IMG/VR virus record: IMGVR_UViG_3300045988_164095
Span: 1 to 19,044 of that record
Reading direction: 5' to 3' (one strand)
Length of the DNA: 19,044 nucleotides
DNA from: a virus
Numbering within the stretch: the first letter of the stretch is position 1; each line of letters starts with the position of its first letter. The translations under genes and the position numbers were made by a program. Positions 2,738-18,832 of this stretch are shown here, piece by piece. The notes beneath the pieces were generated by a model. The model saw only the letters and a list, made by a program, of their open reading frames with translations. It made no database searches and was not told the DNA's origin.

Positions 2738-2787
2738 TGTCAGTTTTTATTTTTTCTTAGTACTTTGAGTGAGTAAAAAACTTGACA
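2738..2787 (+). repeat. Copy 1 of a 50-bp quasi-palindromic intergenic element (invariant 20-mer AGTGAGTAAAAAACTTGACA at 2768..2787)
   Basis: TGTCAGTTTTTATTTTTTCTTAGTACTTTGAGTGAGTAAAAAACTTGACA. It aligns without gaps to 10191..10240 and 16041..16090. The arms TGTCAGTTTTT and AAAAACTTGACA are inverted repeats. It starts 2 nt after the TAA of the upstream gene. Confidence 0.9.
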
Positions 2788-2813
2788 TTAAAGGAGGCTT
2801 AGGTCTCCTTTAA
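2788..2813 (+). terminator. Intrinsic-terminator-like hairpin
   Basis: The 9-bp stem TTAAAGGAG/CTCCTTTAA has an 8-nt loop and is followed by TTATTTTAAT. Confidence 0.6.
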
Positions 2814-2859
2814 TTATTTTAATACATTAGTAAATTGGTTTATATTTTAAGAAAAAGAT

Positions 2860-2888
2860 ATGTAAAAGTAATGTAAAACTATGTAAAA
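2860..2888 (+). repeat. Three direct repeats of ATGTAAAA directly upstream of the 2890 start codon
   Basis: ATGTAAAA occurs at 2860, 2871 and 2881 (spacing 11 and 10 nt), followed by the gene ATG at 2890. Confidence 0.8.
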
Positions 2889-2889
2889 T

Positions 2890-3282
2890 ATGAACTACAG
2901 TTTAATTCTTCAAAATACAACTACTAAAGAAGTTTATACATTTGATCTTGAAAATCAGAATTATTCTGAGAATATCTACTATAAGTTTGATATTACACTT
3001 CAAGAAGGAATGAGAGACGGTGAATATCAATATATTTTATTTGAAAATCCTAATAAGTATGATATAATCATTGATACTAATAATATTTATAGAAGTGAAT
3101 TGTATGGTAATCCTGTAATATTAGTTACATATTCCAATACTCTCACAAATGGAACAGAGATACTTGTAGCTGGTACTCCCATAAGCATACTAAGCTCAGG
3201 TTTAATGAGGGTAGGTAATTATGATAATAATAAATACCAATATGACTATCAATCAAAATACACAGCTTATGAAAGAAAATAA
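2890..3282 (+). CDS. Hypothetical protein (130 aa), probably virion-associated by position
   Basis: Intact ORF with ATG start and TAA stop, first gene after element copy 1 and directly upstream of the portal gene. Confidence 0.55.
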   Translation: MNYSLILQNTTTKEVYTFDLENQNYSENIYYKFDITLQEGMRDGEYQYILFENPNKYDIIIDTNNIYRSELYGNPVILVTYSNTLTNGTEILVAGTPISILSSGLMRVGNYDNNKYQYDYQSKYTAYERK

Positions 3283-3292
3283 AAGTAAAATA

Positions 3293-4360
3293 ATGATGTC
3301 AGCCATAGATCCTTTCATTCAATCTAACATCGTTCTTCCAACGGAAACAAAGAAAAGAGGTTCTGATATGATAATGTGAGGAGAAGATAATAAATATCCA
3401 TTATATCTATGGGATTTATATTTAAATGTTGCCACTCTCCAATCCATTATTAATGGTTCTGCTGACTTTATTGTTGGTAACGATGTTAAATGTAATGCTC
3501 CAGGATTTGAAGTAGTTGTAAACAAGAAAGGTGAAACAATAGTTGATATAATGAGAAAAATCACTATTGATAAGATGATATTCGGAGGTTATGCTATCCA
3601 AGTAATTAGAGATATGCTTGGAAGAGTTGCAGAGATCTATCATATTGATTTTATGAATGTAAGGTCAAGCGAAAAGAATGATATATTATATTATGCAACT
3701 GATTGGACAGCTTGGTCTGTAAAAGCTATAAAATATCCAAAATTTGGAGCTGGGGATGAAAATCCAGCTAGTATATTTTATAATAAAGGTTATATAACAA
3801 GAGGAGTATATCCTATTCCTGTTTATGGAGCTGCTATTTTATCTTGCGAAACTGAGAAAAATATTAATGAATTCCATTTAAATAACATCAATAATGGATT
3901 TATGGGTAATCTTATTATTAACTTTAATAATGGGGAACCTACAGATGAAATTAGAGAGGAGATTGAGAGGAATATTAATGAGAAGTTCTCTGGTTATCAG
4001 AATGCTGGCAGAATATTGATTTCATATAATGCAGATGAGGCAAATAAGACTACTATTGAAAGATTAGATTCTGATGATTTTGATGAGAAATATCAATCAT
4101 TATCTGAGAGAACCAGAGATCAAATATTCTGTGCCTTCAGAGCTAATCCTTCGTTGTTCGGTTTAAACTATAGCTCAGGATTTAATGAAAATGAGTTTAA
4201 TGAAGCATTTAAGCTATATAATCGTACTTTTGTACGCCCAATACAATCAGAAATTTGTGACTCATTTGATAAAATCTTCGGCATTAAGAATAGTATTACT
4301 ATTGAACCATTTAGTTTAACTCCAAAAGGAATGTCAGACAATGCAGAAAATGTTGAATAA
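3293..4360 (+). CDS. Portal protein (355 aa, one in-frame TGA at 3377)
   Basis: ATG at 3293 is in frame with ORF-track 3551..4360, and only a TGA (MIM-TGA-GEDNKYP) interrupts the frame. The length and sequence (YPLYLWDLY, SERTRDQIFCAFRANPSLFG) recall HK97/PBSX-type portals (Phage_portal family). Confidence 0.7.
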
Positions 4361-5003
4361 TTATACAGTGTACTGCCATAAGAATATAGCTGATAATAAA
4401 TTATATTTTGGAATAACATCACTTACTTTAAATAATAGATGGGGAACTAAAGGTCAAGGTTACAAGAATAATCTTTATTTTAGCAGAGCAATTAAAAAAT
4501 ATGGTTGAGATAATTTTGAGCATATTATAATTAGAGATAATCTTCCAGAAGCTTGTGCTAAGACTTTAGAAAAGATTCTGATTTATAAGTATAATACTAG
4601 AAATCCAAAATATGGGTATAATTTAACTGATGGAGGAGACGGTACTTGTGGATATTCTTTTTCACAAGATTATAAAGATAGTCTTAGAATTATAAGATCA
4701 GGAGAAAATAACTCATTTTATGGTAAACAGCATTCAGATGAAAGCAAGCGTAAAATGAGGGAGGCAAGATTAGGCAAAACTCCTTGAAATAAAGGTATGA
4801 AACTCTCAGATAAAGAAAAACAACTAATTTCAGAACGTCAGTGCAAAAAAGTATATAAGTATGATTTAGATGGTAATTTTATTTGTGAGTATAAATCAGC
4901 TAAGGAAGCTGGAGAGAAGAATAATGTAGATTCTTCTAGTATATCTAGATCTTGTAGAAAAAATAAACCCTGCAAAAATTATAAATATTATTATGGAATA
5001 TAG
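4350..5003 (+). CDS. GIY-YIG homing endonuclease (217 aa, in-frame TGA at 4506 and 4785)
   Basis: The N-terminus YTVYCHKN..NKLYFGIT is the GIY..YIG motif. It also has AIKKYG-TGA-DNFEH, YGYNLTDGGDG and a NUMOD-like GKTP-TGA-NKG, plus a C-terminal YDLDGNFICEYKSAKEA DNA-binding module. The gene overlaps the portal 3' end by 11 nt and the next gene's start by 11 nt. TAG stop. Confidence 0.85.
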
Positions 5004-5670
5004 AAATGTACTATTAATATCTGAAGATTATATAAAATCAGAATCTAATCTAGACAATAATGTTTCTGGTAAATATCTTCAGTCAGCAATTAAACTTGCA
5101 CAAGATATTGAGCTTCAGTCATTAATTGGAACTAAGCTCTTAGAAAAGATTCAGAAATTAGTAATTGATTGAAAAGATCCAAATAAACCAGTTCATCCAA
5201 TAGAACCTCCTATTTATGATCCTACTTCAATAGATGACCCAGAAAATCATAGATATAAAGAATTGCTAGATTACTATATTCAGCCTTATTTACTTTATCA
5301 AGTATTAAGTGAGATTACTATACCCATCTCATTTAAGCTGAGTAATTTTGGGGTTATGAGGACTGATGATGAGAAAGATTTAACTTCTGATATTAGCCAA
5401 GTTAATCTTATTAAGAAATATTATAGAGATAAAGCAGATTTCTTTAAAACAAGATTACAAAATTGGGTAATTACATATTATAATGATTTTCCTGAATTGT
5501 ATTCTTATAAACCTCTTAAAGATATGTATCCAAATATGTATTCAAGTTCATCTTGCACTATTTGGTTAGGTGGAGCTAGAGGTAAAGGTTGGAGATATAA
5601 TTCTTGTGAAGGTCCTCTGCAAAGAGCTTATGATTTCCCTTCAAGTGATAACAATAAAAAGAGTAAGTAA
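4993..5670 (+). CDS. Putative head-tail connector/adaptor-like structural protein (225 aa, in-frame TGA at 5170)
   Basis: ATG at 4993 is in frame with ORF-track 5263..5670. The N-terminus ISEDYIKSESNLDNNVSGKYLQSAIKLAQDIELQSLIG resembles gp6-like connector N-termini. The functional call is weak. Confidence 0.4.
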
Positions 5671-5671
5671 G

Positions 5672-6097
5672 ATGACGTATTTTGAATTAATAAACAATTT
5701 AAAAGCTTGTGCTCTTGAAGAACCCAATATTAATTTTGTAGGAAGTAAGGATATATATGAACTTAATAGTATCCCAACTATTGAATATAATGTATTTTAT
5801 ATAACTCCAAATACATTTAATATGGATGAGGATACTATTACTTACTCTTTAAATCTCTATTTTATAGCAAGATGGGATGAGACTGATAATAATCAGCTTG
5901 AAGAGCAATCAGCTGGAATATTAGCATTAACTAATATAATTAACCGATTTAATAACCAATATCCAGAAGTTGATATTTCTTATCCTTTAATTTTTACTCC
6001 ATTTTATCAGAAGTTCAAAGATATTTGTACTGGAGTATTTGTTAGAGTTGATTTAGCTGTAGACAACACTCTGGGTACTTGTTCTGATAATATGTAA
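5672..6097 (+). CDS. Hypothetical structural-module protein (141 aa)
   Basis: ATG at 5672 lies 2 nt after the upstream TAA, and the ORF-track start at 5570 is an upstream alternative start inside the previous gene. TAA stop overlaps the next ATG as TAATG. Confidence 0.55.
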   Translation: MTYFELINNLKACALEEPNINFVGSKDIYELNSIPTIEYNVFYITPNTFNMDEDTITYSLNLYFIARWDETDNNQLEEQSAGILALTNIINRFNNQYPEVDISYPLIFTPFYQKFKDICTGVFVRVDLAVDNTLGTCSDNM

Positions 6098-6750
6098 TGG
6101 AAAATAAATTAAACTGGTTTGGAAAGGTATTAGAATGAGTAGATAAATATGGACTGTGGAAAATAATTAAAGGTGGATTTGGATTTATATTTATTTCTTA
6201 TGTAATAATTATAAGTACTAATCCAGGAATAATATATGATAAAGTTGTAAGTTATATAGAAACAGTTCATAATACTAATCAAGTAATACGACAAGAAGCA
6301 GATCTTAAGGTTAGATATATTCTTAAAGATCTTTTAAATGATACGAATGCAGATAGAGCTTGAGTTATTGAGTATCATAATGGCACTTCAGGATTAGGAG
6401 GACTTCCATTCACTTATGGAATTATGAATAGTGAAGAAACAGAACCTGGAGTTGCTCCAGTTTCAAGTCATTATAAAGACTTCCTATTATCTGATTATTT
6501 ATTTATATTAGAAACATCTAAAAAAGGAGGATGATTTGGAGATGTTGAAGATATAAAGGAATTAGATAGAAGAATGTACTATACATTTAAATCTAATGAT
6601 GTTAATAAGATTGCAATATTCTATTTAAAGTCAGAAGATAGAGATATTGGAGTTTTAGGATTATCTTATTGTGATAATGAGATGCCAGTTGATACTTGAG
6701 TAAAACTAAGAGATGCAGGAATTAAAGTAAGTATAATTTTAAATAAATAA
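6097..6750 (+). CDS. Membrane-anchored protein (217 aa, four in-frame TGA), first gene of the putative lysis cassette
   Basis: This gene is absent from the ORF track because of TGA codons at 6136, 6361, 6532 and 6697. Read with TGA=Trp it is one continuous frame from a TAATG start to TAA at 6748. It has an N-terminal hydrophobic helix GGFGFIFISYVIIISTNPGII. Confidence 0.6.
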
Positions 6751-6753
6751 GTT

Positions 6754-6915
6754 ATGAAATATTGGATGAAATATTTAATAGCAATAGTAATTATAATCTT
6801 AGTCTTTTTAATGGTAAAAGTAATTCCATTTTGGATTACATTAGTACTCATAGCACTTGGTGCAGGATGTCATTTATTTTACCGTTATACTATGCTTAAA
6901 GATATTATTAAATAA
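6754..6915 (+). CDS. Holin candidate (53 aa, two predicted transmembrane helices)
   Basis: MKYWMKYLIAIVIIILVFLMVKVIPFWITLVLIALGAGCHLFYRYTMLKDIIK has two hydrophobic helices and a charged C-terminus. Its stop overlaps the endolysin ATG as TAATG. It is too short to appear in the ORF track. Confidence 0.5.
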   Translation: MKYWMKYLIAIVIIILVFLMVKVIPFWITLVLIALGAGCHLFYRYTMLKDIIK

Positions 6916-7367
6916 TGAAATATTTTACTATTAGTGAATTAACAAGATCTGATACAGCTTCTATTAAGAAGATAGATAATACTCCAAATAAAGAGATTAC
7001 TGAACACCTTATAGAGTTAGTCGAGAAACTTTTAGACCCAATCAGAGAGAGATGGGCAAAGTATTGTGATGACAATCAGCTTGGTAACGCAGGCATCAGG
7101 ATTTCCTCTGGTTTTAGAAATAAGGAGCTTAATAAAGCAGTAGGAGGATCTTCAACTTCTGCTCATTTAACAGGGTATGCAGCAGATATATCTCCAATTA
7201 ATGGTAATATGAAAGTATTCCAAAGTTGGATTGCTGAAGCTATTGAAGAATTTGATTTCGACCAGTTGATATATGAAAGGCCTAGGAATGGTATAGCAAG
7301 TTGAATACACTTGGGATTAAAGAATAAAGACGGGATGCAAAGACGACAGAAATTTACTATTATATAA
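6915..7367 (+). CDS. Peptidase M15 (VanY/M15A-like) peptidoglycan hydrolase, endolysin (150 aa, in-frame TGA at 7302)
   Basis: The motif SGFRNKELNKAVGGSSTSAHLTGYAADI matches the SxHxxGxAxD signature. The terminal His is recovered only by reading through TGA (GIAS-TGA-IHLGLK). TAA stop overlaps the next ATG. Confidence 0.8.
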
Positions 7368-7960
7368 TGTTTTACTATTGTTATAAAATAATTTTAACTG
7401 CAGGTACATTAAGAGGCAAGTATTATATTGGGAAAAGGATTTATAGAGGTAAAGACATAAATAAAGATCCATATAAAGGATCAGGAAGGATTATTACTAA
7501 TTATTACAAAAGATTCCCTAATGCATACCAAAAGATTATTTTGGCAACTTGCACTAATGCAGATGAATTATCTAAATTAGAATACAAACTAATTGGAGAT
7601 AAATGAGACACTGATCCTATGTGTTTAAATTTGAAACCTGGAGGAGAAGGAGGCAATTACGGAGTCAAATTTAATTCTGAATGAAAGAAGAAACTGTCTA
7701 ATTCTAATAAGGGAAAGAAACATAATTGCCCAGAATCTTGAAGAGTTAAAGTAGATGCTCATAACAAACAAAGATGTCGTAAAGTAGCTCAGTATGATTT
7801 AGATGGTAATTTTATTCAAGAGTATGAAAGTTGCACTGAAGCAGCCAAATCTGTAGGAACTGATAGAGGAGCTATTAGTAGAGTATGTGGTGGATTAGCA
7901 AATACAGCTAAAGGATTCAAGTGAAGATATGTTAATAAAAAAGAAAAGGAGGGCAAATAA
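7367..7960 (+). CDS. GIY-YIG homing endonuclease (197 aa, in-frame TGA at 7604, 7682, 7739 and 7922)
   Basis: N-terminal YCYKI...GKYYIGKR motif, then NLKPGGEGG and a C-terminal YDLDGNFIQEYESCTEAA...GFK-TGA-RYV module shared with 4350..5003. TAA stop lies inside a terminator hairpin. Confidence 0.8.
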
Positions 7961-7970
7961 CCCTCCTTTT
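7944..7970. terminator. Bidirectional intrinsic terminator between convergent gene blocks
   Basis: The 10-bp stem AAAAGGAGGG/CCCTCCTTTT has a 7-nt loop, with an A-tract upstream and a T-tract downstream. It sits between the plus-strand gene ending at 7960 and the minus-strand gene ending at 7974. Confidence 0.8.
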
Positions 7971-7973
7971 TGT

Positions 7974-8114
7974 TTATTCCATTATCTCAAATAATTTCTC
8001 ATCTTTAGGTATTAATTCTCCAGTTTGTAAATCTACTAAGAATTTACTATTTTCGGGAATTACATAAACGTAATTTACTCCATTTAAGCATAATTTATAT
8101 GTAAAGTACTTCAT
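7974..8114 (-). CDS. Hypothetical small protein (46 aa)
   Basis: MKYFTYKLCLNGVNYVYVIPENSKFLVDLQTGELIPKDEKLFEIME. Its ATG lies 2 nt from the stop of the upstream micro-ORF, and its TAA sits just before the terminator. It is below the ORF-track length cutoff. Confidence 0.4.
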   Translation of the reverse strand: MKYFTYKLCLNGVNYVYVIPENSKFLVDLQTGELIPKDEKLFEIME

Positions 8115-8115
8115 A

Positions 8116-8256
8116 TTAGTCAATATATGTTGCGTTAGGAATCTCTGGTTTGGGTGTTTCTTTTACTTCTTCCCAAACTAAACCTCTATTCTGGTTTTCT
8201 AGTTGAACTATTCTATATTCTAGTTCTTCAAGCTTTTTAAATAAATAATCATCCAT
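8116..8256 (-). CDS. Hypothetical small coiled-coil protein (46 aa)
   Basis: MDDYLFKKLEELEYRIVQLENQNRGLVWEEVKETPKPEIPNATYID, packed tightly with its neighbours. Confidence 0.4.
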   Translation of the reverse strand: MDDYLFKKLEELEYRIVQLENQNRGLVWEEVKETPKPEIPNATYID

Positions 8257-8258
8257 AA

Positions 8259-8420
8259 TTAATCAAATTTAGAAATAAACATATAATCTTTATCTTTTAA
8301 TACTTTATCTATAATATCACCAAATCTTTTAGTAGCCTCTTTACATTCGAGCATTCATTTATCCAATTCTTTAATATACTCTTCTGTTTGTTTAATTGTT
8401 TCTTTAGTATCACTTTCCAT
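8259..8420 (-). CDS. Hypothetical small protein (53 aa, one in-frame TGA at 8355..8357)
   Basis: MESDTKETIKQTEEYIKELDK-TGA-MLECKEATKRFGDIIDKVLKDKDYMFISKFD. It starts 19 nt downstream of the helicase stop. Confidence 0.35.
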
Positions 8421-8438
8421 ATCACAAATATAATATTT

Positions 8439-10160
8439 TTATTTATTAAATACAAATTTTTTATTAATAATTACATAACCTTCAGTTTGTTTACCATTTA
8501 CTCTTTTCTGGCATTTTTTAACTTCATAATATTTATCAATTTCTGTTGCTTTTGGAGTAATAGTAATATCACTAATTTCATAAGCTTCTTTAACAAACTT
8601 TTTAATATCAGCGTTAGAATACCACATTCCAAGAGTAATTGATTGATTTAACTTCTTAGCTGCTTTATTATCTGCACTTTTATTTGATTTCTTTAATAGA
8701 GCATCTTTAATATCCGAAATGCAATATTTCAAGCTTGCCATCTTTTCGAATCCTAATTTACTAATAGCTTCTGGTAACCAAGGATATTTAATAATAGCAT
8801 CATTTAAGAGTGGAGTATTCAGTTTAAATTTATTTTCCCATTCTGTTCTAACTTCTTTAATTAGTTCTTTAAATGGTTTATTATCAGATTCAAAATCAAT
8901 CTTAATAGAGTTGTCTTCACATTCTACTACTTTTTTAAATCCGTTCTTTATATATTCTTTATTAAGATTCGTTCTAATAGAATATAAACCTCTTGTCACT
9001 TTAAAGTTAAAAATATCTACCTTAGCCATATTTGGATCAAATGTAAATGTAAAATCATCATTTACTTGGATATAAGTATCAGATGTAAATTCTTTAAGTT
9101 TCTTTCTTGCAACTTCAGGCATTGCATTGTAAGCATCTACAGCAATCTTAGTTTCCTCAATATTCTGGATATTCTTCTTTTTAAAGTCTTCATAACTAAT
9201 ATCTGCATATCTTGTTGCTGAGTAAAGATGAGTTATCCAGTTTAAATATTTACTATTTCTAATTCTACCAGCAATCTGTTGAATAGAAGTTGAAATGTCA
9301 AGAAGAGTTTGTGCTTTTTGAGCATCACTTACTACTACAATTCTTCCATTTTCATCATAAATATCAGAACCTTCAAATACTGTAGAAGTTAATAAATTTA
9401 TTTTCTTAGGTTCATCTAATACTGTAGAATTATGAATTGATAATTTGGTTTTATTGTTTTTGGAATATATAACTCTGGTATTCTCTTCTGTAAGTTTAGC
9501 TTTCTGAATAAGATTCTTTATAAAGTCTACAGAATTTACAAATATATAAACATTACCTTCGACTTGATTATTAAGAACAGCATTAATTAATTTAATAGTT
9601 GAAGCTTCAACATTCTTACATTTAACGGCTTGTACCTTAGTTTCAATAACATCATCCCATTCTTGTTTTACTAATTCTAAATCTTTTAATTCATCTAATA
9701 CAAACTCTTCTTCAAGAGGAGTAGCAGTCATAAATGTAAAATCTTTAAATAATTTATAGTTCTCTAAAACAGGCTTAATAGCATCCTTTCTAAAGCTATA
9801 CTGATTAAATAGTATATGATATTCATCTACTAATAAACTATATTCTTTAGTATTAACTGCAGAAATAACTTTTGGAAGTGAGTTATATGTAACAATAATT
9901 TTAGGGCATTTAACACTATCTACGTAATCTTTAATCTCTTTAATAGTAACTCCAGCATAAACTCCAAATATCTTCTCAGTACGTCTTTCATTTGGATATT
10001 GTTGAAGTTTATTTTCAACTAAGCTAGTAAATGGAACACAAATAACATAAGGCTTATTACATTCAATTGCCATTGAAGTTCCTCCACATCCAACTTTTCC
10101 TTTATCAAATAAACAGTTAGTTGGCAACTCATTAATCAAATTGTTTAAATATGTTTTCAT
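8439..10160 (-). CDS. Superfamily-2 DExH-box helicase (573 aa)
   Basis: Motif I-like KVGCGGTS, motif II LLVDEYH, motif III FMTATP and motif VI QIAGRIRN. It has no in-frame TGA (five Trp, all TGG) and a TAA stop. Confidence 0.8.
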   Translation of the reverse strand: MKTYLNNLINELPTNCLFDKGKVGCGGTSMAIECNKPYVICVPFTSLVENKLQQYPNERRTEKIFGVYAGVTIKEIKDYVDSVKCPKIIVTYNSLPKVISAVNTKEYSLLVDEYHILFNQYSFRKDAIKPVLENYKLFKDFTFMTATPLEEEFVLDELKDLELVKQEWDDVIETKVQAVKCKNVEASTIKLINAVLNNQVEGNVYIFVNSVDFIKNLIQKAKLTEENTRVIYSKNNKTKLSIHNSTVLDEPKKINLLTSTVFEGSDIYDENGRIVVVSDAQKAQTLLDISTSIQQIAGRIRNSKYLNWITHLYSATRYADISYEDFKKKNIQNIEETKIAVDAYNAMPEVARKKLKEFTSDTYIQVNDDFTFTFDPNMAKVDIFNFKVTRGLYSIRTNLNKEYIKNGFKKVVECEDNSIKIDFESDNKPFKELIKEVRTEWENKFKLNTPLLNDAIIKYPWLPEAISKLGFEKMASLKYCISDIKDALLKKSNKSADNKAAKKLNQSITLGMWYSNADIKKFVKEAYEISDITITPKATEIDKYYEVKKCQKRVNGKQTEGYVIINKKFVFNK

Positions 10161-10190
10161 AATTTTAATAATTTAAATAGTTAAAGTTTT

Positions 10191-10240
10191 TGTCAATATT
10201 TTTATTTTCTTACTACTAAAAGTGAGTAAAAAACTTGACA
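10191..10240 (+). repeat. Copy 2 of the 50-bp element (invariant 20-mer at 10221..10240)
   Basis: TGTCAATATTTTTATTTTCTTACTACTAAAAGTGAGTAAAAAACTTGACA. It has the same plus-strand orientation as copies 1 and 3 although both flanking genes are on the minus strand. Confidence 0.9.
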
Positions 10241-10256
10241 GTAAGATTCAAAAAGT

Positions 10257-10275
10257 GGCAGGATTTTCACCTGCC
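10257..10275 (-). terminator. Terminator-like hairpin downstream of minus-strand ORF 10290..10445
   Basis: The stem GGCAGG/CCTGCC has a 7-nt loop. On the minus strand it is followed by ACTTTTTG, and on the plus strand it has no T-tail. Confidence 0.5.
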
Positions 10276-10289
10276 TAGAAGTAATAGAA

Positions 10290-10445
10290 TTACTTATTTT
10301 TACTAAAATAAGCTGCAATTGTAGGAGAGTTAGCTAATAAGTTAGCAAATTGTTCATCAGAACAAGTAATTGAATTCTCCATAGTGCTCTTAATTGTATT
10401 ATCTTCAATAATAATTGTTCCATTGTTTTTAATCGAATTTTTCAT
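10290..10445 (-). CDS. Hypothetical small protein (51 aa)
   Basis: MKNSIKNNGTIIIEDNTIKSTMENSITCSDEQFANLLANSPTIAAYFSKNK lies about 40 nt downstream of a consensus Bacteroides-type promoter and is followed by a hairpin. Confidence 0.45.
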   Translation of the reverse strand: MKNSIKNNGTIIIEDNTIKSTMENSITCSDEQFANLLANSPTIAAYFSKNK

Positions 10446-10486
10446 AGTCTTTAAAATTTTAATTATAATAATCTATTTTGATAGTA

Positions 10487-10518
10487 CAAATATACAACAT
10501 TTTTATTTAAAATCCAAA
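10487..10518 (-). promoter_or_regulatory. Bacteroides-type promoter (-33 TTTG, 20-nt spacer, -7 TATATTTG)
   Basis: The minus strand reads TTTG gattttaaataaaaatgttg TATATTTG tactat, upstream of the ATG at 10445. Confidence 0.6.
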
Positions 10519-10567
10519 TAATTCGGGTATTATTTTTAATAAAAAATTATTTTTTTTCTTTACACTA

Positions 10568-10598
10568 CAAATATAATAATAAATTTTTATTCTACAAA
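10568..10598 (-). promoter_or_regulatory. Second, tandem Bacteroides-type promoter (-33 TTTG, 19-nt spacer, -7 TATATTTG)
   Basis: The minus strand reads TTTG tagaataaaaatttattat TATATTTG tagtgt. Its -33 box lies inside the last codons of CDS 10587..11072. Confidence 0.5.
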
Positions 10599-11072
10599 AC
10601 TTTTCTTGATTTTTCTTACCCAAAGTTTTGTTAATTTTTTGCCATTCTCTTTTTCGTATCTTTGATTAGCATATTTTATTCAGTCTCAATTTAGTGCATT
10701 TAATTGAATTGCAGCTCTATTTAATGATACTCCAGATAAGCACAATTCTACTAATTTATCTATATTCTCATTATATCATTCTTTTTTGCTTTGTTTATTT
10801 ATTTTTATATTATTTGCACTCTTAAAATCTGCTAATAGCTCTACAATTAATTCATCTGGAAGTTTTAACCATTCTGAATTACTCTTAGTTTTATATGCTC
10901 TATATTTATCTCTATAATAATTTTCATCATCTCTATTTCCTTCTTTTGCTATAAAAAATTCTATCATCTCATTTGGAATAGTATTTTTATAAGCAGTTAG
11001 TCTGCCACTTATATTAGTAGTGTAACCAACTTTAATAAAATTCGTTTTAGTTAATTTAATTACGTAAATCAT
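10587..11072 (-). CDS. T5orf172 (GIY-YIG-like, MUG113) domain protein with C-terminal helix-turn-helix (161 aa, three in-frame TGA)
   Basis: The N-terminus IYVIKLTKTNFIKVGYTTNISGRLTAYK...SEWLKLP matches the T5orf172 pattern. The ORF-track stop at 10776..10778 is TGA. Read-through adds IDKLVELCLSGVSLNRAAIQLNALN-TGA-D-TGA-IKYANQRY... (HTH-like) up to TAA at 10587. Confidence 0.7.
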
Positions 11073-11148
11073 ATTGTTTTTATTAATATATAATAAAAAT
11101 ACAAATAGTAATATTTTTTTGAAAATAATAAAAATAATACCTAAAAAA

Positions 11149-11180
11149 TTTGGAAATTGAATAAAAATGTATTATCTTTG
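11149..11180 (+). promoter_or_regulatory. Bacteroides-type promoter (-33 TTTG, 20-nt spacer, -7 TATCTTTG)
   Basis: TTTG gaaattgaataaaaatgtat TATCTTTG tagtac lies in the divergent intergenic region, 45 nt upstream of the ATG at 11225. Confidence 0.6.
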
Positions 11181-11224
11181 TAGTACAATAATAAACAAGT
11201 ATTAACATATTAAATAATAAAATT

Positions 11225-11464
11225 ATGAAAAAAATAAATAAAATTTTAGTTGGTCTTTTAATTGCATCTTCAATTGTTGCAGGTTTTAGAGTAAATGAAG
11301 TCTATCAGGAAAGACAACATAAAACATTTGAATTAAGATTAGAAAGAGCAGAATTAAAACATAAATTAGATTCAGTAATGTGGGTTAATCCAGCAAGTGA
11401 AGAAGTATCTAATTTATATGAAGAATATTGTGATTTAACACTTAAAATTAATAATATAAAATAA
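11225..11464 (+). CDS. Small membrane-anchored protein (79 aa)
   Basis: It has an N-terminal hydrophobic segment ILVGLLIASSIVAGF, and its TAA overlaps the next ATG as TAATG. Confidence 0.55.
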   Translation: MKKINKILVGLLIASSIVAGFRVNEVYQERQHKTFELRLERAELKHKLDSVMWVNPASEEVSNLYEEYCDLTLKINNIK

Positions 11465-11901
11465 TGAAAACAGATATAAGAAGCTTAGTCTTTACAAAGA
11501 ATCTATTTAAAGAGAAATTTAATATAGATATAGAATGATGTAAAGACGATTACTCCAGATATGATGGAACATTTAATTGGAATGGAATTGATTATATAAT
11601 TGAAGTTAAAAGGAGAAGATTTAATTCTAATAAATATCCAACCACTATTATTAATAGGGATAAATTTGATATGCTATCAAGAAATAATTCTATATTAGTA
11701 ATAATATTTGATGATGGAGTATATATATTTAAAGATATAAAACAAGCCTTTATAAAGGATTCTATGAAATATGGTTGTTCTACAACAGATTTTGGAGGAA
11801 CTTATGGCTATTCATTAAAAACAGAGTTGTCTTTAAAGAAAGCCATTAAGATAGATGTAAATACAGAATTTAGTAATTATATAGCAAATGATAGCCTATA
11901 A
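11464..11901 (+). CDS. Putative PD-(D/E)XK-fold nuclease (145 aa, in-frame TGA at 11536)
   Basis: ATG at 11464 is in frame with ORF-track 11671..11901. The segment YDGTF...IDYIIEVKRR fits a D...(D/E)xK nuclease core. The functional call is tentative. Confidence 0.4.
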
Positions 11902-12382
11902 AAGAATACTTAATTTTGAAAACTACCAAATTGGAACTGATGGCTCAATATGAAGTTTAAGAGCATCAGTTCCAAAGAGGTTAAAACCTCAAGTAAAAAC
12001 TAATGGGTACTTTACAGTAACATTATATAATAAAAATTTGAAAAAGAAGTGTTATATACATAGATTAGTAGCTGAAACTTTTATATCTAATCCGAATAAC
12101 TATCCTTGTATAAATCATAAGGATGAAAATAAATCAAATAATAATGTAAGTAATTTAGAATGGTGTACTTATAATTATAATAATAATTATGGAACTCATA
12201 ATCTGCGAGCTGGATATAGTCATAAGAAACCAATACTGCAATTACTAAATGGAATAGTTATTAAAAGATGGGATTCAACAATAGATGCTGAGAGAGAACT
12301 AAATATACAATCTAGAAATATTGTAAAGGTTCTTAAAGGGCAGCGAAAAACAGCAGGAGGATATATGTGAACATATGAGTAA
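11888..12382 (+). CDS. HNH homing endonuclease with NUMOD4-like N-terminus (164 aa, in-frame TGA at 11951 and 12368)
   Basis: It has FENYQIGTDGSI-TGA-S (NUMOD4-like), HRLVAETFISNPNNYPCINHKDENKSNNNVSNLEW (HNH_3-like) and a C-terminal KGQRKTAGGYM-TGA-TYE. The true stop is TAA at 12380. Confidence 0.8.
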
Positions 12383-12683
12383 TAACGAAATTGTAGAAAA
12401 GTACTATCCATTTATTATGGAACTTAAGCAAAAATTTGGTGCAGATGATGACTGTGTTCAAATGATTTTTGTAGAAATACTAGAGTATTCAAATCCAAAA
12501 TTAAATCAGCTTGATAGCAAAAATGAATTGAAATTTTGGATTACAAGATTATTTAAGAATTATTGGTTTAGTAAAACAAGTAGATATTACTATACCTATA
12601 AGAAATATTATGAGATTGTTAAAGAACCACTTGAACAACAAAATGACGAATTGGAGGATTGATTAAATGAAACGGAAGATTAA
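12375..12683 (+). CDS. Sigma-70-family region-2-like protein (102 aa, in-frame TGA at 12660)
   Basis: ADDDCVQMIFVEILEY and FWITRLFKNYWFSKTSR resemble sigma regions 2.1 to 2.4 of ECF-type factors. No region 4 is present in this frame. Confidence 0.5.
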
Positions 12684-12912
12684 TATTGACGATTTACTTA
12701 CTGAGTATGAAATAGACTATAGTATGTTTACAAATATGGATGATAGACTATTAAGTATATATCCAAAATGACTTGAGCTTAATAAGGCAGATAAGACAGT
12801 AATCATATTATATGCTGAATATCACAGTTATAGAGAAGTGGGAAGAATATTAGGAATTAGTCATACTACAATTCAAAGATTTATTAAACAAATAAGAGAG
12901 AGATTATGTTAG
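12667..12912 (+). CDS. Sigma-70-family region-4-like HTH protein (81 aa, in-frame TGA at 12769)
   Basis: DKTVIILYAEYHSYREVGRILGISHTTIQRFIKQIRERL matches a region 4.2 helix-turn-helix. The gene starts inside the last 17 nt of the region-2 ORF in the +1 frame. TAG stop. Confidence 0.55.
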
Positions 12913-13235
12913 AATTATTTATAATAGCAGTAATAATAGTCTTTATAATTGATTTATCTGGGGCTTTGGATAGTTTTAAACATAGTATTTGAAAAAGACT
13001 ATTTAAAGGTATGCCTTATAAAGGAGATTGAAGACTAAAACCTTTAGATTGCAGTTTATGTATGACTTGGTGAATTGGATTAATATATATTCTTATTACA
13101 AGTCAATTTTCAATTTTAATGGTTGGATATATTGCACTATTAGCATTTATGACTCCAATTATTAAAGATATTATGATATTATTAAAAGATGCATCTACTA
13201 AGCTGATAGATGTTATATACAAACTTATTGATTAA
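12906..13235 (+). CDS. Membrane protein (109 aa, three in-frame TGA)
   Basis: This gene is absent from the ORF track. Hydrophobic segments are LELFIIAVIIVFII, WIGLIYILITSQFSILMVGYIALLAF. It contains LDCSLCMT-TGG-TGA-IG, with adjacent TGG and TGA codons. TAA at 13233. Confidence 0.55.
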
Positions 13236-13324
13236 AAATTATATTTTATGGAAACAGAAGTTATTTATCACTACAAGAATGGAAAGTTAATTTCTATATT
13301 TACTTATACTAAAAAGCGCTAATT

Positions 13325-13660
13325 ATGAAACAATTAACAGAAGAGCAGTTTAAATATTTAAGAGGATTTGAAGATAGATTTGTAACGGCAACTAAGTCTA
13401 ATTATTGCAGAAATGTACAAAAGCAGGATGTAATTAAGCTTAAAGAGATTTATGAATGTTTAATTGAACAAGAATATAGAATGAGCGTAGCTTGTGCTAC
13501 TTGTATACTTAATCTTATAAAGAGGATTGCCCCAATCTATTTTGAATATCAAGAAAAACTAAAGGAAAATGAAAGTAAAGAATCAGGAACTGCCGAAGAA
13601 AATAGGGAGACCGAAAAAGGAAGAAGTAAAAGAGGATCAAATAGACGAACAAAAAACTAA
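13325..13660 (+). CDS. Hypothetical protein (111 aa)
   Basis: Intact ORF whose last 92 nt overlap the next gene in another frame, so the 3' extent is uncertain. Confidence 0.45.
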   Translation: MKQLTEEQFKYLRGFEDRFVTATKSNYCRNVQKQDVIKLKEIYECLIEQEYRMSVACATCILNLIKRIAPIYFEYQEKLKENESKESGTAEENRETEKGRSKRGSNRRTKN

Positions 13661-14021
13661 ATATCTTTATGCAGCAAGATTATTTAATAAAGGGTGGTCC
13701 AGAAATAAAGTAAGTGAGGAACTTCAAACTAAATATGGAGTTGGGCAAACTACTGCTGCTAAATATATTAGAGAAGCTTATAAGATTATTGCAGATAAAA
13801 ACGATAATCTTATAAAGAATTTAAGACATATACAATTAACAAGATTGGAAACATTGTTGGATATTGCTATTAGTAAAAATGATGTAAGATCTGCTACTGA
13901 GGTTATTAAAACAATAAATTCTATGTTTGGATTAAATCAACCAGAAATTCAAGTTAATATTCAAAATAATGAATGCCAATTTAAATTTGGAGATCCTATT
14001 ATAAATGACAAGGATATATAA
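13569..14021 (+). CDS. Putative terminase small subunit (150 aa)
   Basis: It has an N-terminal basic segment KKIGRPKK, then an HTH-like GWSRNKVSEELQTKYGVGQTTAAKYIREA. It lies directly upstream of and overlaps the large terminase gene. Confidence 0.5.
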   Translation: MKVKNQELPKKIGRPKKEEVKEDQIDEQKTKYLYAARLFNKGWSRNKVSEELQTKYGVGQTTAAKYIREAYKIIADKNDNLIKNLRHIQLTRLETLLDIAISKNDVRSATEVIKTINSMFGLNQPEIQVNIQNNECQFKFGDPIINDKDI

Positions 14022-15252
14022 AGGATATAGGCCATTTATGTACCAATATAAGGTTCATATAGCTATGGCAGATGCTTATAGATCTGGAAGGATATTTACA
14101 ATTAAAGCTAAACGACAAGTAGGTAAATCTTTCTTAGCTGAAAATGAATTATTACGATTTGCAATTAACTATCCAAAAACAGTCAATTGTATAGTAGAAC
14201 CTACTCTTGGACAATCAAGAAAAGTGTTTAAAGAAATAGTTAATGCTATAGCTGAAGCAGATATTCTTAAACGTAAGAATGAAACTTTGCTTGAATTAGA
14301 GTTTAATAATGGCAGTTCTATATTATTTAGATCTGGAGAACAAATGGATTCGTTACGAGGATTCTCTGTAAGTGGATTACTTGTATTAGATGAGGCTGCT
14401 TACTTAAAAGATGAAGTATTTGAAATTATTAAACCTACTACTGATGTGTGGTCTGCTCCAATATTAATTATTAGTACTCCAAGGTTCCGAGAGGGTTTCT
14501 TTTATGACTGCTTTACTAAAGGGTTAGATCCGAAATATGACAAGTTCTATAAATCATTTGATTGAGCTTTAGAAGATACATCTATGCTTTTAGATAAAGA
14601 GAAGTTAGAGATGTATCGACTTACAACCTCAAAAAATAAATTTAGAACCGAATATTTAGGGGAATTTGCAGATGATGATGGATGTTTATTTAATAATATA
14701 GCTAATTGCATAATTGAGAAAAAACCAGATTATCAGAGTCTTTATATAGGAATAGACTGGGCTACTGGAAGTGGTAAAGACTATACTTGTGTTACTGCTT
14801 TAAATGAATCTGGGCAAATGGTCTTTATAAAGTATTTTAACGATAAAACTCCAACAGAGCAAGTTGATTTATTAACAAATATACTAACTGAGTATCAAGG
14901 ATTTATAAAGATTGTGCAAGTTGAACAAAACTCAATTGGTAGTGTCTTCTATGATATGTTAATTCGGAAGAATCCGAAAATCAGGATTATACGATTCTTA
15001 ACTACTAATAAGAGTAAGGCAGATATAGTTAATAAGCTTCAAGCTGCTTTGGAGAATGAAAAGATAGGATTATTAAAAGATGATAAACTTTTAAATGAGT
15101 TAAGACTATATGAAGCTTCATATAATCCAAAAACTGGAAATGTTAGTTATAATGCTCCATCTGGATTTAATGATGATACAGTAATTTCATTAATGCTAGC
15201 CTATGACTCATTAAATACAAACAAAGGACATTATAATATTAAAATTAAATAG
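14005..15252 (+). CDS. terL: Terminase large subunit (415 aa, in-frame TGA at 14563)
   Basis: ORF-track pieces 14005..14565 and 14584..15252 share one frame. Walker A is AKRQVGKS and Walker B is LLVLDEAAY. Nuclease-domain acidic motifs are YIGIDWA and GFNDDTVISL. The TGA falls in KSFD-TGA-ALED. TAG stop. Confidence 0.85.
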
Positions 15253-15253
15253 T

Positions 15254-15895
15254 ATGATAAAATCTTGGAATGAAATGAATTTAGCTCATTATAGAAAACT
15301 ATTGGATGTAATTAGAAAAGAATGAGAAAATGAATTAGATATGAATTTAGCTATGGTATCTGTACTTAGTGATATTTCTTTAGAAGAAATTCAAAATATG
15401 GAGCTGAATAAATTACAAGAATTAATTAACAATCTTAAATTCGTAGAGAGTACATATAAACCTAAAACTCCAGAAACTAAATATATTATTGGAGACAGGG
15501 AATATAAAGTCTTTTTTAATGTTAATAAGATGACTGCAAGTCAATACATAGACTTCCAGAATTTTTATAAGAAGTATGATGATTATATGCCAAATCTAGC
15601 TGCTTGCTTTTTATTACCAGAAGGTAAGAAGTATGGAGAAGATTATGATCCTTTGGATGAAGCAGAGTTTTTGAGTAATCTTCTAACCATTGATGTATTT
15701 TCAGATATAATGTTTTTTTTTGTAAACTTATTGCGACTATCAACTCTGAGTACCCTTCACTCTTCGGAAAGAGAGATGAAGAAGAAATTGAAGAAAACAA
15801 AGAACAAATTAGAAAGGAGAAAGATCCTAAAGAGCTTAATTCAGGCGAGGAGATTAATACTTTTACTCAAAAATGAAGCTGAATTATCTGAATAG
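15254..15895 (+). CDS. Hypothetical protein, zero-frame product (213 aa, in-frame TGA at 15323)
   Basis: ATG at 15254 is in frame with ORF-track 15341..15895. A T9 run lies at 15713..15721. The zero-frame tail after the run is low-complexity and K/R-rich, ending at TAG 15893. Confidence 0.5.
15713..15721 (+). other. T9 homopolymer: candidate -1 ribosomal frameshift or transcriptional slippage site
   Basis: Zero-frame codons are atg ttt ttt ttt gta. A -1 shift enters the frame that stays open to 16038. Confidence 0.45.
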
Positions 15896-16038
15896 ATAAA
15901 GTAAGTGAGGTTACTAAATTTAATTGGCATCAAGTTTATGATATGCAAATTAAAGAGTTCTTAAATACAATTTGTTATGTTATAGATAAAGCTAATGAAG
16001 AAAATAGACAAATTGAAGAATGAAAACGAAAACATTAA
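15721..16038 (+). CDS. -1 frame extension of gene 15254 (105 codons, four in-frame TGA), with no start codon of its own
   Basis: This frame is open from 15679 to TAA at 16036, and its first ATG is not until 15943. Its translation is CKLIATINSEYPSLFGKRDEEEIEENKEQIRKEKDPKELNSGEEINTFTQKWSWIIWIDKVSEVTKFNWHQVYDMQIKEFLNTICYVIDKANEENRQIEEWKRKH. It ends 3 nt before element copy 3, mirroring the stop-to-element spacing at copy 1. Confidence 0.45.
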
Positions 16039-16040
16039 AA

Positions 16041-16090
16041 TGTCAGTTTTTATTTATTTTAACTACTAAAAGTGAGTAAAAAACTTGACA
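16041..16090 (+). repeat. Copy 3 of the 50-bp element (invariant 20-mer at 16071..16090)
   Basis: TGTCAGTTTTTATTTATTTTAACTACTAAAAGTGAGTAAAAAACTTGACA. Confidence 0.9.
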
Positions 16091-16093
16091 CTT

Positions 16094-16118
16094 AAATAGG
16101 GAGTAAATCTCCCTATTT
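16094..16118 (+). terminator. Intrinsic-terminator-like hairpin
   Basis: The 10-bp stem AAATAGGGAG/CTCCCTATTT has a 5-nt loop and is followed by GTGTTT. Confidence 0.6.
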
Positions 16119-16651: not shown

Positions 16652-18832
16652 ATGGCATTTATACCAAGTAAATTAGGAATATATAATGCATCAAGGAGTT
16701 TTCCTGTTAAATGGAATAATCCTGGGTGGGGAATTACTGGAGAATATGATTATTGGACTTGGGGAGATGATTATACTGAAGAAGGGCCTTTAGAGGTAAC
16801 TATACAAGAGCCTAGTACTTCTGGATGTACAATACAATTTTTATCTCCCACAACAATAACTACTGATTCTTCTACTGTATTTCATTTTTATCCTAGAGGT
16901 CTTACTACTGCTTTATTAATGGAAGATTTACCAATTAATTTACATAGTAAATCTCCTGGATTCTATCCTGCTAATGGTAGTATTAATGTACCAAATACTG
17001 GTGGAGAATATACAGTAGAGTATATATTAAATAGATCAGATATTATTAAATGAGATGCAGCAGTTGTTAATGCTACAGCTTTAGTTAATATAGAAGTTCT
17101 GGATTGGGATTCTTGCTCTATTAAGTTTAAATTTACAGTAAGAGCTAATACTCAATGGAATACAGATTTAATTGGAACTATTCAATTAGGAGCTTATTAT
17201 GACACTAATAAGTTTATTAGTTATAGTTACGGCTTTAAAATTGAAAAAAGTAATACTCCAGAAGATTTAAAGTTAGTAGTAACTCCTTCATCTGGAACTT
17301 ATGGAGCATCTGCTTTTGTTACTGAAGAATTCCATTTAAGTACAACTAAAGCAGAAGAAACAATTACCTCATTTAATGTTACCTGCCCTCAAGCTAGTAA
17401 TATTAAAAAGGATATTGTTGATAACTATTTTGTATTAACTGTTCCAGAGAATAAAACTACTAATAATTTGGAGTTTAGTGCAATGGTTACTGCAACAACT
17501 TCTGGGGGTTATAACCTTGAAGCTACAGTTCCAATTAAACAAGCTGCAACATCTTTAATGATTCCTAATACTAATTATGAAGTAAGTTGAACTGCATCTA
17601 CATTAAATATAATTGGTACAGGCTCAAATAACTTAGATGATGTTGTATTTAGTATTCCTGTAGGTTGGATTAGTGGACAGAAGATAACTGTGAATCCTCA
17701 AGGTGTAGCAACTATTAGTTTGAACATTGCAGAAAATTCAGGTTTATCTTCTAGACAAGCAACTATTGGAGTATCTGTTATAAAGAATAGTTCAAGTATT
17801 ATTAATTTATCTATTAATATTACACAATCTGTTAAATCTGATATATTTCCTATTTGAAAAGATTATGTTTGGGAAGAGATTATTAGTTCAGATTTTATTG
17901 AATATCATTTAGATTATGCAGGGGATATGGTCTATGCTGGAAAAGCTTATAAATATCCTGAAACAGATAGAGTAGAGTTTTTATTAAATAATGTAGCTGA
18001 AAATTATCTATCTAATGGAATTATATTTAATACATCAAAAACAATAGTATCACCAGAATATTTAAAACCATTTACATTAATAACTTCATCTGGAAATGAA
18101 AAGCCAATTACTTTTTTCAATGATTGGAGTTATAAAGACAGAGATCTAACTAAAGGCACTATGTTAAGTGATCCTATTACTGGTTTAGTTGATCCAAGGC
18201 AGTATTTAGTATCAAGTTGAATTCTACCAACTGGAACTGGAGTTATTAATAGATTCTTTTATATAGATGGAGTACAATCTGCTATGGATATTAGTTTAAA
18301 TTCTGGAATTAATGGATATACATATACAGAAGATTTAAGTAATAAATTATGGCCTTGTGGAAGTTATTTAATAGTAGGATTTGTAGAAGGTGGAAACATT
18401 AGTGATAGACAGATTAGATATGATATAGATACTACAGGTAAAGATTATGTGTTATATTATACTAATTCAGCAGGTGGATGAGATTCATTACTTGTTGAGG
18501 GTAATGTTAAAAAGAATGATGATATTAAATCTGAAACATATACTCGTAAGGTATTAAATACATCACAAGAGTTTGCAAGAAATAAGTATTTGAATACTAT
18601 AACTTCAAGCTGGATTCTTTATACTGGTTATTTAAATGATATTCAAGCTTCTAAGATGTTTAATCTAATTGAGAGTACCAAAGTATATTTGCATAATCTT
18701 AAAGATAATACTATCACTCCAGTATTGATTACAGATACAAATTGTGAATATAAAACTTATACTAATCAAGGTAAAAACAAGTTCTATTATACAATTAATG
18801 TAGAAGCTTCTCAAGATACTTATCGTAAATAA
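16652..18832 (+). CDS. Large virion structural protein (726 aa, five in-frame TGA) with BACON/Ig-like repeats, probably tail or baseplate
   Basis: ORF-track pieces 16652, 17927, 18284 and 18590 are all in one frame. I translated 17054..17926 codon by codon and found no TAA or TAG. In-frame TGA codons are at 17051, 17588, 17855, 18218 and 18479. The segment S-TGA-TASTLNIIGTG...VGWISGQKITVNPQGVATISLNIAENSGLSSRQATIGVSV fits a BACON-like pattern. Confidence 0.65.

Follow-up and report, generated by a model that had tools for sequence, protein, structure and literature searches.

The recurrence of one short palindromic sequence at the boundaries of gene blocks in a small phage genome raises the question of what signal it might carry. 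The stretch of DNA analysed here (the window, meaning all 19,044 nucleotides (nt) of IMG/VR virus record IMGVR_UViG_3300045988_164095) contains three copies of such an element, a 50-nt quasi-palindrome, for which the initial annotation, made from the letters alone, had put forward a late promoter, with an operator, an RNA-processing stem-loop, a strand-specific DNA site and a mobile repeat as alternatives. The copies are constrained in their pairing, are linked to the gene of a superfamily 2 (SF2) helicase-like protein, and are independent of the terminator-like hairpins in their neighbourhood. On sequence grounds, a signal of replication start or of an RNA boundary is more likely than a promoter, and the element may, as a tentative reading, be a hairpin-forming, origin-like recognition site for the SF2 helicase.

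The 20-mer AGTGAGTAAAAAACTTGACA was matched exactly at positions 2768, 10221 and 16071, all on the + strand; no fourth match was observed in the window even at 3 mismatches, and none in 200 shuffles. The 50-mers that end with it (copies 1, 2 and 3, or types 1, 2 and 3 for the corresponding sites of other genomes; Table 1) align without gaps and have a T-rich, variable left part, as the initial annotation had described, and a covariance model of the element family retrieves exactly three copies from the window (63-73 bits). The location of 3/3 copies on one strand has, taken alone, a chance probability of 0.25. Copy 1 begins 1 nt past the stop codon of a tail-fibre-like open reading frame (ORF) at 1765-2736 and is followed on the right by the operon from 2890 (portal and following genes), and copy 3 begins 2 nt past the stop codon 16036-16038 of the ORF on its left and is followed by a neck/tail-completion-like gene at 16161, both stops being read in genetic code 4; the order of stop codon, element and GC hairpin that had been noticed earlier was seen at both. 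The helicase-like gene starts 30 nt from copy 2, which is upstream of it and has its box-bearing strand antisense to that gene. A functional-looking quasi-palindrome at the heads or ends of gene blocks, as originally proposed, is borne out.

The 20-mer was also found in 38 stretches of ~30-kb IMG/VR contigs, and searches anchored on TerL and on the helicase, together with contig look-ups, yielded ~70 further loci (lineages are given below as L numbers). The element recurs in about 60 related contigs of this size in which TGA is read as Trp, generally with 4-5 copies per genome and in the range of 3 to 5. The search of related genomes suggested at the outset therefore shows the element to recur, with further copies and conservation, albeit with variation in its sequence. 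A fourth copy, outside the window, was observed in a near-complete relative (contig 140557) between a tape-measure-like gene and the prohead protease, scaffold and capsid genes, and some genomes have a fifth one, on the other strand, in the gap that separates the helicase stop codon from the minus-strand gene beyond it, so that elements are located at every boundary between gene blocks. The type-1 site is occupied in relatives too, and the same four sites stay filled across relatives with diverged flanks, the box remaining unchanged. The invariance of the 20-mer holds within the window but not among the relatives, where the first two bases vary, the A-run has 5 or 6 residues, the base before TTGACA is C, T or G, and the TTGACA end itself varies; the constant parts are the box (T)GAGTAAAAA and the loop motif YTAC. 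Likewise, the uniform orientation is a feature of the window but not of the relatives, about half of which have one site flipped, and some of which carry the extra copy on the other strand.

The outer arms occur in several versions: TGTCAA or TGTCAG with CTTGACA in the window and most relatives; TGTAAC with GTTACA in a second group of relatives; TGTCTA with TAGACA in L064, L017 and L067; TGTGAGA with TCTTCACA in L102; TGCTGG with CCAGCA in L103; and GAGGG with CCCTC in L134. Several versions can coexist in one genome (e.g., L064 and L103), each copy having matched arms, and the hexamer at the right end takes the forms TTGACA, GTTACA, TAGACA, TTCACA, TTAACA and CCAGCA (CCCTC in L134). Covariation across relatives, a check that the initial annotation had recommended, was assessed in an alignment of 29 distinct variants, with 500 shuffles and with a slid partner column as control. 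The six outer pairs were paired in 91% of cells, compared with only 15-62% for the slid columns, and the full 20-pair stem model in 81%; changes on both sides were counted in 23 cells against 7.3 +/- 2.3 in the shuffles, 0/500 of which reached 23, so that compensatory change is significant. Some one-sided changes, from U-A to U.G or from U.G to C-G, keep the pair only in RNA, and the columns that never change are TGAGTAAAAA and the (T)AC of the loop. Judged from this alignment, pairing at the base of the hairpin and sequence in its upper part are under selection, and the resemblance of the 3' end to a -35 consensus is incidental, because the TTGACA end changes together with the left arm.

The self-pairing of the ends described in the initial annotation stands, but the 11-bp stem with a 27-nt loop given there does not: as RNA, the + strand copies form 16-20 bp stems with three or four G.U pairs and a loop of ~8 nt, the G residues of TGAGT lying opposite U. 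Because these G residues face U, the box-bearing strand folds better as RNA than the complementary strand (mean -12.5 vs. -7.8; better in 26/29 variants), and the copy of one relative reaches a minimum free energy (MFE) of -18.8 kcal/mol with a z-score of -7.0. A cruciform on duplex DNA was considered and is unlikely, with loops of 8-27 nt and weak DNA energies.

The 573-amino-acid (aa) product of the gene beside copy 2 has 756 homologues in a protein search and no sequence-level match in Pfam, PHROGs or PDB. Its predicted structure (predicted local distance difference test score 82.9) displays an SF2 core of two RecA domains followed by a C-terminal domain; the fold matches in PDB are to many SF2 enzymes, with the complex of the herpes simplex virus 1 origin-binding protein and oriS (9hgi) at rank 11, while a library of viral structures returned one unnamed full-length homologue first and then many "replication origin-binding proteins" of giant viruses and herpesviruses or DNA helicases of Bacteroidota phages. 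Palindromes of the same build were observed 12-55 nt upstream of the helicase start in the clade of the window and in L103, L134, L136, L138, L166, L171 and L175, and the last six of these keep the palindrome upstream of helicase homologues that are 41-56% identical. The shared build comprises a variable outer stem, a T-run, a loop with TATA(T)AC/G, an A-run and the outer stem again, and the palindromes of L138 and L171 are near-perfect. In L134, the portal of which is only 50% identical to that of the window, the TCAGTAAAAAAA box is retained with unchanged orientation to the helicase gene and a second copy is found elsewhere, whereas L106 (portal 72%) and L109 are without the helicase and without any copy of the element; in L106 the helicase is replaced by a replication-initiation O-like/DnaD-like protein (PHROG 270, E 1e-8) beside 20-bp iterons. 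No counterpart of the element was found in the distant TerL relatives L097-L099 (32-43% identity). From these comparisons the element seems to follow the helicase rather than the structural genes, and copy 2 appears to be the ancestral, helicase-linked copy.

The GC hairpins near the copies are, as their distribution indicates, terminator modules separate from the element, and each occurs without the other. At the junction after the TerL block four states were observed, namely a stop/start overlap TAATG in L106 and L109, a terminator only in L103, an element only in L102, and both in the window; the suggestion that a transcript starting at the element bypasses the hairpin as a terminator is not supported, as L102 and L103 illustrate. 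Near copy 2, at a distance of 16 nt, the hairpin carries a minus-strand T-run and is thus terminator-like for the small minus-strand genes to its right. As an intrinsic terminator the element itself fails, having an A/U-rich stem and no T-run behind it, whereas the neighbouring hairpins fit. Attenuator-type pairing of the 3' arm of the element with the terminator was rejected, no complementarity being seen by inspection. A further hairpin, strong and bidirectional, at the meeting point of the late and helicase blocks (Table 1) has no element beside it.

Differential histories were observed for the sites. The type-3 site is the most variable in relatives, being normal, flipped, degenerate, lost or never present. 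Its copy is inverted in about half of the relatives between unchanged flanks, with the arm-mismatch base switched to the other side, which fits an inversion with crossover in the outer 6 bp. In L103 it is missing between flanks ~97% identical to filled sites, and the segment that distinguishes the filled from the empty state is flanked by TTAAA-like repeats, which fits deletion by slippage equally well, the other sites being without duplication. The element begins 0-2 nt past a stop codon in most site classes, and in L102 it spans the entire gap from the stop codon to the next ATG. Copies reduced to the right arm were found at type 4A and twice in the helicase-proximal region of L103, which suggests that the recognition box may be able to stand alone. 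Comparison of the type-1 site of L020 with those of L005 and the window shows a chimaera, in which the element is the exact point where a flank upstream from one variant meets a hairpin downstream from another, and this joint indicates recombination at the element repeats.

Under the origin-like reading, the element would be a fold-back cis-signal of the replication module, the founding copy of which would stand immediately upstream of the gene for the UL9/origin-binding-protein-like SF2 helicase and would have spread to three or four more intergenic sites in the phage lineage. Upon opening of the AT-rich DNA, one strand would fold into a hairpin, the base of which would be free to vary if paired, while the upper part would show the box and the YTAC loop; the helicase, as initiator, would recognise the folded site and load there, so that the copies would act as origin-like or helicase-loading sites, comparable in action to herpesvirus oriS with UL9 or to the two origins of SPP1. 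The GC hairpins by copies 1-3 would be ordinary terminators in the same scarce non-coding space. This reading was ranked highest because it accounts for the link to the helicase, the conserved orientation of the founding copy relative to that gene, the redundancy and the stand-alone boxes; the signs of redundancy are the copy number of 3 to 5, the one flipped site and the one site lost precisely. An AT-rich palindrome next to the putative initiator gene, conserved with it, was found, and it is absent where the helicase is replaced. That the helicase binds the element, and that this serves replication, we infer from the comparison of genomes.

Several observations weigh against this assignment. 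The fold match to origin-binding proteins concerns the generic SF2 core, DEAD-box, Mfd, RecQ and SNF2 proteins scoring equally in PDB, and the presence/absence comparison includes two helicase-less lineages only. A 30-kb genome with four to five origins would be out of the ordinary; copies within a single genome have different outer arms, which are therefore not constant "Box I/II"-type binding sites; and under DNA parameters the fold has little stability (-5.3 to -6.3 kcal/mol, z -1.1 to -1.8) and does not differ between the strands, the much better folding of the box-bearing strand being a property of RNA. The dispersed copies directly behind stop codons, two of the window sites lying before terminators, suit an RNA 3'-end or intercistronic signal. 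A fuller version, in which the phage uses herpesvirus-like initiation with its origin multiplied to 4-5 transcription-unit boundaries, each serving as a replication or helicase-loading site and as a recombination joint, is rather improbable.

Among the other explanations, a transcribed RNA stem-loop of 16-20 bp at the end of a transcription unit or between cistrons, acting as an RNase III-type processing or stability site or as a nut-like control of read-through, is possible though doubtful; in the latter case, a phage factor, for which the SF2 protein is a candidate, would bind the hairpin and govern whether transcription passes the downstream terminator. It agrees with the significant folds of the box strand (z -3.5, -3.5 and -7.0) and their superiority over the opposite strand, with the U-A to U.G and U.G to C-G changes, with the position behind stop codons, and with a varying stem base below a constant upper stem and loop, which is typical of protein-bound RNA hairpins; the element of L102 must be transcribed because it fills the whole gap from stop codon to ATG. 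Copies 1 and 3, lying between cistrons, have on their sense strand stems long enough for the two or so helical turns of double-stranded RNA expected of an RNase III-type site, a feature that does not alone define the family. Sites of the nut and put kind lie upstream of the terminators they override, and the order of element and terminator at copies 1 and 3, and of pseudo-copy and hairpin at type 4A, is the order that antitermination needs, but it is not observed at copy 2 (antisense) or at type 4, L064 and L102 (no terminator behind). Moreover, the box strand is antisense to the neighbouring genes in the ancestral type-2 copy, also in L134, and in the flipped type-3 copy; no promoter that could drive + strand transcription through copy 2 was found; element and terminator are independent, and a junction without either still works; Rfam gave no match and no boxA/boxB or put signature was found at E <= 1 over the window; and the disappearance of the element with the helicase module has no reason unless the SF2 protein is the RNA-binding partner. 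A selfish or neutral palindromic repeat spreading in spare intergenic DNA, similar to repetitive extragenic palindromic (REP) sequences, REPINs or miniature inverted-repeat transposable elements, is quite unlikely: the element is small, palindromic, multi-copy and always intergenic, is polymorphic in presence and orientation at orthologous junctions, differs between filled and empty type-3 sites by a segment with TTAAA-like flanking repeats, and coincides with a mosaic breakpoint in L020, but its termini are the most variable and its interior the most conserved part, the opposite of a transposase-recognised element. In addition, no transposase or RAYT-like gene was observed in the phage, the four sites and the helicase-adjacent copy are conserved over diverged flanks and deep divergence, respectively, and a scan of the 18-mer against representative genomes covering 185,579 species turned up 25 isolated hits, spread over unrelated phyla as chance would predict, with no genome in which it was a repeat. 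Still less probable is an operator in which the arms are half-sites for a dimeric repressor or activator on duplex DNA; inverted repeats at operon boundaries and the near-perfect palindromes of L138 and L171 would suit it, but one protein could not read the differing arms within L064 or L103, each copy of which is nevertheless self-complementary, and the arms lie ~38 bp apart with the conserved box on one of them only.

Promoters were considered in two forms. A promoter inside the element, with the left arm TGTnnn as a -35-like part, the loop (G/C/A)TAC as an extracytoplasmic function (ECF)-type -10, a split ECF-like sigma factor as reader, and a start in or near the TGAGTAAAAA box as a conserved leader, is unlikely. 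The distance from left arm to loop motif is a constant 16-18 nt in all versions, TGTAAC is the -35 element of known ECF promoters (B. subtilis SigX/SigW), the canonical orientation faces a downstream operon in 7/8 site classes (including copy 2 toward 11225 onward, the L064 minus-strand copy and L134), and an overlapping pair of phage ORFs matches complementary halves of the ECF sigma profile, the 102-aa ORF covering TIGR02937 positions 4-104 (E 8e-4) and the 81-aa ORF positions 117-161 of 165 (E 2e-5), with Pfam Sigma70_r4_2 just above the cut-off. One public record names a sigma-like ORF a sigma factor, and the homologues are always two ORFs of ~100 and 81-89 aa, so the pair would be either a split sigma or a frameshifted one; the split sigma factor of the initial annotation (12375..12912) is suggested by the complementary matches rather than firmly supported. 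However, the constant spacing follows from the hairpin geometry anyway, the supposed -35 varies freely and its covarying partner at +12 to +18 goes unexplained, the best-conserved part would be a transcribed leader instead of a recognition element, transcripts would hit the terminators at copies 1 and 3, the flipped type-3 copy faces into the upstream gene, and the element is missing from L106-L111, which keep the sigma-like pair, so that sigma and motif do not co-occur. The sigma-70-type late promoter originally envisaged, with the terminal TTGACA as its -35, read by the split sigma and starting inside or after the following hairpin, is the least probable of all, since no part of the element varies more than TTGACA, which changes together with the left arm. 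The hexamer is rarer in the window than expected (5 vs. 10.8 +/- 3.4), with 4/5 occurrences within elements, the fourth genomic copy has TTGACA-N17-TATAAT or N16-TATATA behind it in some relatives, and a start ~30 nt past TTGACA would land just beyond the hairpins of copies 1 and 3; against this, the hexamer varies among relatives and sometimes within one genome with compensating left-arm changes, no -10-like hexamer was found 16-18 nt after TTGACA at copies 1-3 (the spot falls in the GC hairpins, as CTCCTT, TCTCCC and GCAGGA), the element is separated from the following ATG by 3 nt in L102 and by 20 nt in L064/L017, too little for a transcription start to fit in between, inversion of the type-3 copy is seen in about half of the relatives, and sigma-70-like matches are fewer in the window than in shuffles (96 vs. 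131). The absence of Shine-Dalgarno sequences from the window genes, and a distant relative that is a prophage adjoining a tyrosine integrase in a Lentimicrobium (Bacteroidota) contig, count in the same direction, as does the early region, where four TTTG-N17-22-TAnnTTTG matches were observed against 1.26 expected, on gene-consistent strands. These matches, kept in L082, L096, L102 and L106, correspond to what we take to be the Bacteroidota housekeeping promoter consensus; the early promoters look like this type and not like TTGACA/TATAAT, which would imply a Bacteroidota host. Three other candidates were rejected: a sigma-54 promoter, the GG and GC dinucleotides being absent by eye; a site for integration host factor, in which the partial likeness to WATCAANNNNTTR falls on the variable outer arm; and an activator site at fixed distance, the element lying ~9, 25, 39, 55 and 65 nt from the TATATT box described below without helical phasing. 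Of the alternatives listed in the initial annotation, the RNA stem-loop and the strand-specific DNA site stay the best candidates, whereas the operator and the mobile repeat score low.

Comparison with known systems places the element among origins, hairpins and boundary repeats, which it resembles in kind. With herpesvirus oriS/oriL and UL9 it would share an initiator that is an SF2 helicase with an extra C-terminal domain (here from the predicted model), a palindrome of ~45-50 bp with an AT-rich centre that refolds into a hairpin carrying the recognition box, and several copies per genome with the founding copy between divergently arranged genes; as far as the sequence alone can tell, it differs in having no similarity to oriS, 4-5 copies in 30 kb, variable arms instead of Box I/II, and a box on one arm. 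SPP1 oriL/oriR and the multiple origins of T4 likewise comprise more than one origin-type site, one at or in the initiator gene and others in late regions, but consist of direct repeats bound by G38P, or of R-loops at a promoter plus unwinding element, and not of covarying hairpins. The RNase III hairpins of T7 and the lambda nut and HK022 put sites are also conserved stem-loops between cistrons of long phage transcripts, from which the element is distinguished by the lack of boxA or boxB similarity and of an Rfam match, by two antisense site classes, and by being dispensable at a junction. PeSL (promoter early stem-loop) cassettes of T4-type phages, REP/REPIN sequences and Correia-type repeats are short, repeated intergenic palindromes at module boundaries and mosaic breakpoints, whereas the element has varying termini, a conserved interior, no mobilising enzyme and a tie to a helicase family. 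Mycobacteriophage stoperators and start-associated sequences (SAS) or extended SAS are asymmetric short intergenic repeats, mostly in one orientation and many per genome, but are 13-17 bp duplex protein sites without a pairing constraint, unlike the covarying element. Rfam returned nothing at the elements over the window at E <= 1 and nothing at its gathering threshold over L103, L106 and L109, and literature searches found no description of the element, which is new as far as Rfam, the GenBank phages and the literature searched go.

Table 1. Coordinates of the element copies and of other features (positions in the window unless a lineage is given; MFE, minimum free energy, in kcal/mol).
Feature	Position	Strand	Remarks
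Copy 1 (type 1)	2738..2787	+	Covariance-model hit 2735-2788, 69 bits; RNA MFE -10.7, z -1.9; left arm TGTCAG, T-rich arm, loop CTTAGTAC, box TGAGTAAAAAA, right arm CTTGACA
Copy 2 (type 2)	10191..10240	+	Covariance model 63 bits; RNA MFE -12.1, z -3.5
Copy 3 (type 3)	16041..16090	+	Covariance model 72.6 bits; RNA MFE -13.1, z -3.5
SF2 helicase-like gene, 573 aa	8439..10160	-	Only replication-type gene of the phage; candidate partner of the element
GC hairpin with T-run	2787..2814	+	12 pairs, tail TATTTTAATA; directly after copy 1; intrinsic-terminator-like
GC hairpin	10257..10275	-	GGCAGGTGAAAATCCTGCC ACTTTTTG on the minus strand; 16 nt from copy 2
GC hairpin with T-rich tail	16094..16118	+	AAATAGGGAG/CTCCCTATTT; after copy 3; terminator-like
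Bidirectional terminator-like hairpin	7943-7971		11 pairs, T-runs on both strands; + strand late block meets minus-strand helicase block
Sigma-like ORF pair	12375-12683 and 12667-12912		Overlapping, in different frames
TTTG-N17-22-TAnnTTTG match	8425-8456	-	
TTTG-N17-22-TAnnTTTG match	10487-10518	-	
TTTG-N17-22-TAnnTTTG match	10568-10598	-	
TTTG-N17-22-TAnnTTTG match	11149-11180	+	
ORFs with TGA codons (examples)	4341-5003, 6915-7367, 16652-18832		
Homing-endonuclease-type genes (two GIY-YIG, one HNH, one T5orf172)	4341-5003, 7367-7960, 11888-12382, 10587-11072 (-)		
Iterons ACCC(T/A)ATTTTGAGTAC(C/T)ACC	L106:6813-6954		Next to the replication-initiation-like gene

The genome that carries the element encodes a portal, TerL, an M15 peptidase, homing-type genes of the GIY-YIG, HNH and T5orf172 kinds and two small sigma-like ORFs. 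TGA is read as Trp in the window phage: ORFs in table 4 are far longer than those in table 11, TGA stands at conserved Trp or aromatic positions (KYG[w]DNF; Tyr in one standard-code homologue), and 35 in-frame TGA codons were counted against 44 TGG, with 0 TGA in the helicase-like gene. No DNA relative of the phage was found among the GenBank phages, and its TerL is <30% identical to those of cultured phages; it is a small TGA-recoded phage, probably of Bacteroidota. No tRNA and no suppressor tRNA was found by ARAGORN in the window or in ~90% of related genomes, and the hairpin loops of the element are without a UCA anticodon; a preprint on recoded phages reports suppressor tRNAs to be detectable in only 35% of those with code 4 (10.1101/2021.08.26.457843).

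Further features were observed in the window and its relatives. The T5orf172 and other homing-type genes are variably present among relatives and interrupt otherwise contiguous regions. Three tandem ATGTAAAA units, each a start codon with an immediate stop codon, lie at 2860-2889 with 10-11 nt spacing just before the ATG at 2890, and are kept, with variation, in relatives. An open frame at 15679-16038, which overlaps the 3' part of ORF 15254-15895 in another phase and ends at the stop codon before copy 3, is kept in relatives and may extend that ORF by programmed frameshifting, as in tail assembly chaperones. Several blocks open with a gene that has the start context TATATT(T/A)(T/A)A..AAAA-ATG, in which the TATATT box precedes the ATG by 8-12 nt; this context recurs upstream of 16161 and 6915 and, in relatives, upstream of the protease and T5orf172 genes, and the box may be -7/-10-like and give near-leaderless mRNAs. 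An early-type promoter in L106 is followed by a non-coding stretch of ~450 nt (L106:7090-7560) that is G+C-richer than its surroundings; no tRNA and nothing from Rfam matched there, and the stretch may be a structured RNA. The IMG/VR contig 3300045988_175865 (L011/L091/L130), at 148,631 bp about 5x the ~29.7-kb phage genome and containing one or more complete phage copies, probably reflects concatemeric or strain-collapsed assembly and is not a host contig.

For the annotation of such genomes, the element illustrates that a perfect TTGACA behind an A-tract is not evidence of a promoter, especially in hosts without that consensus, and for the phage family it marks mosaic joints. To our knowledge, gene regulation in phages of Bacteroidota is almost unknown, and if the RNA stem-loop explanation is true, the element would be a new cis-regulatory stem-loop gating transcription-unit boundaries in these phages. 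If the link to the helicase is true, it would represent a compact and testable bacterial-virus counterpart of herpesvirus UL9-oriS initiation, and would explain where DNA synthesis starts in a 30-kb phage with a single replication gene.

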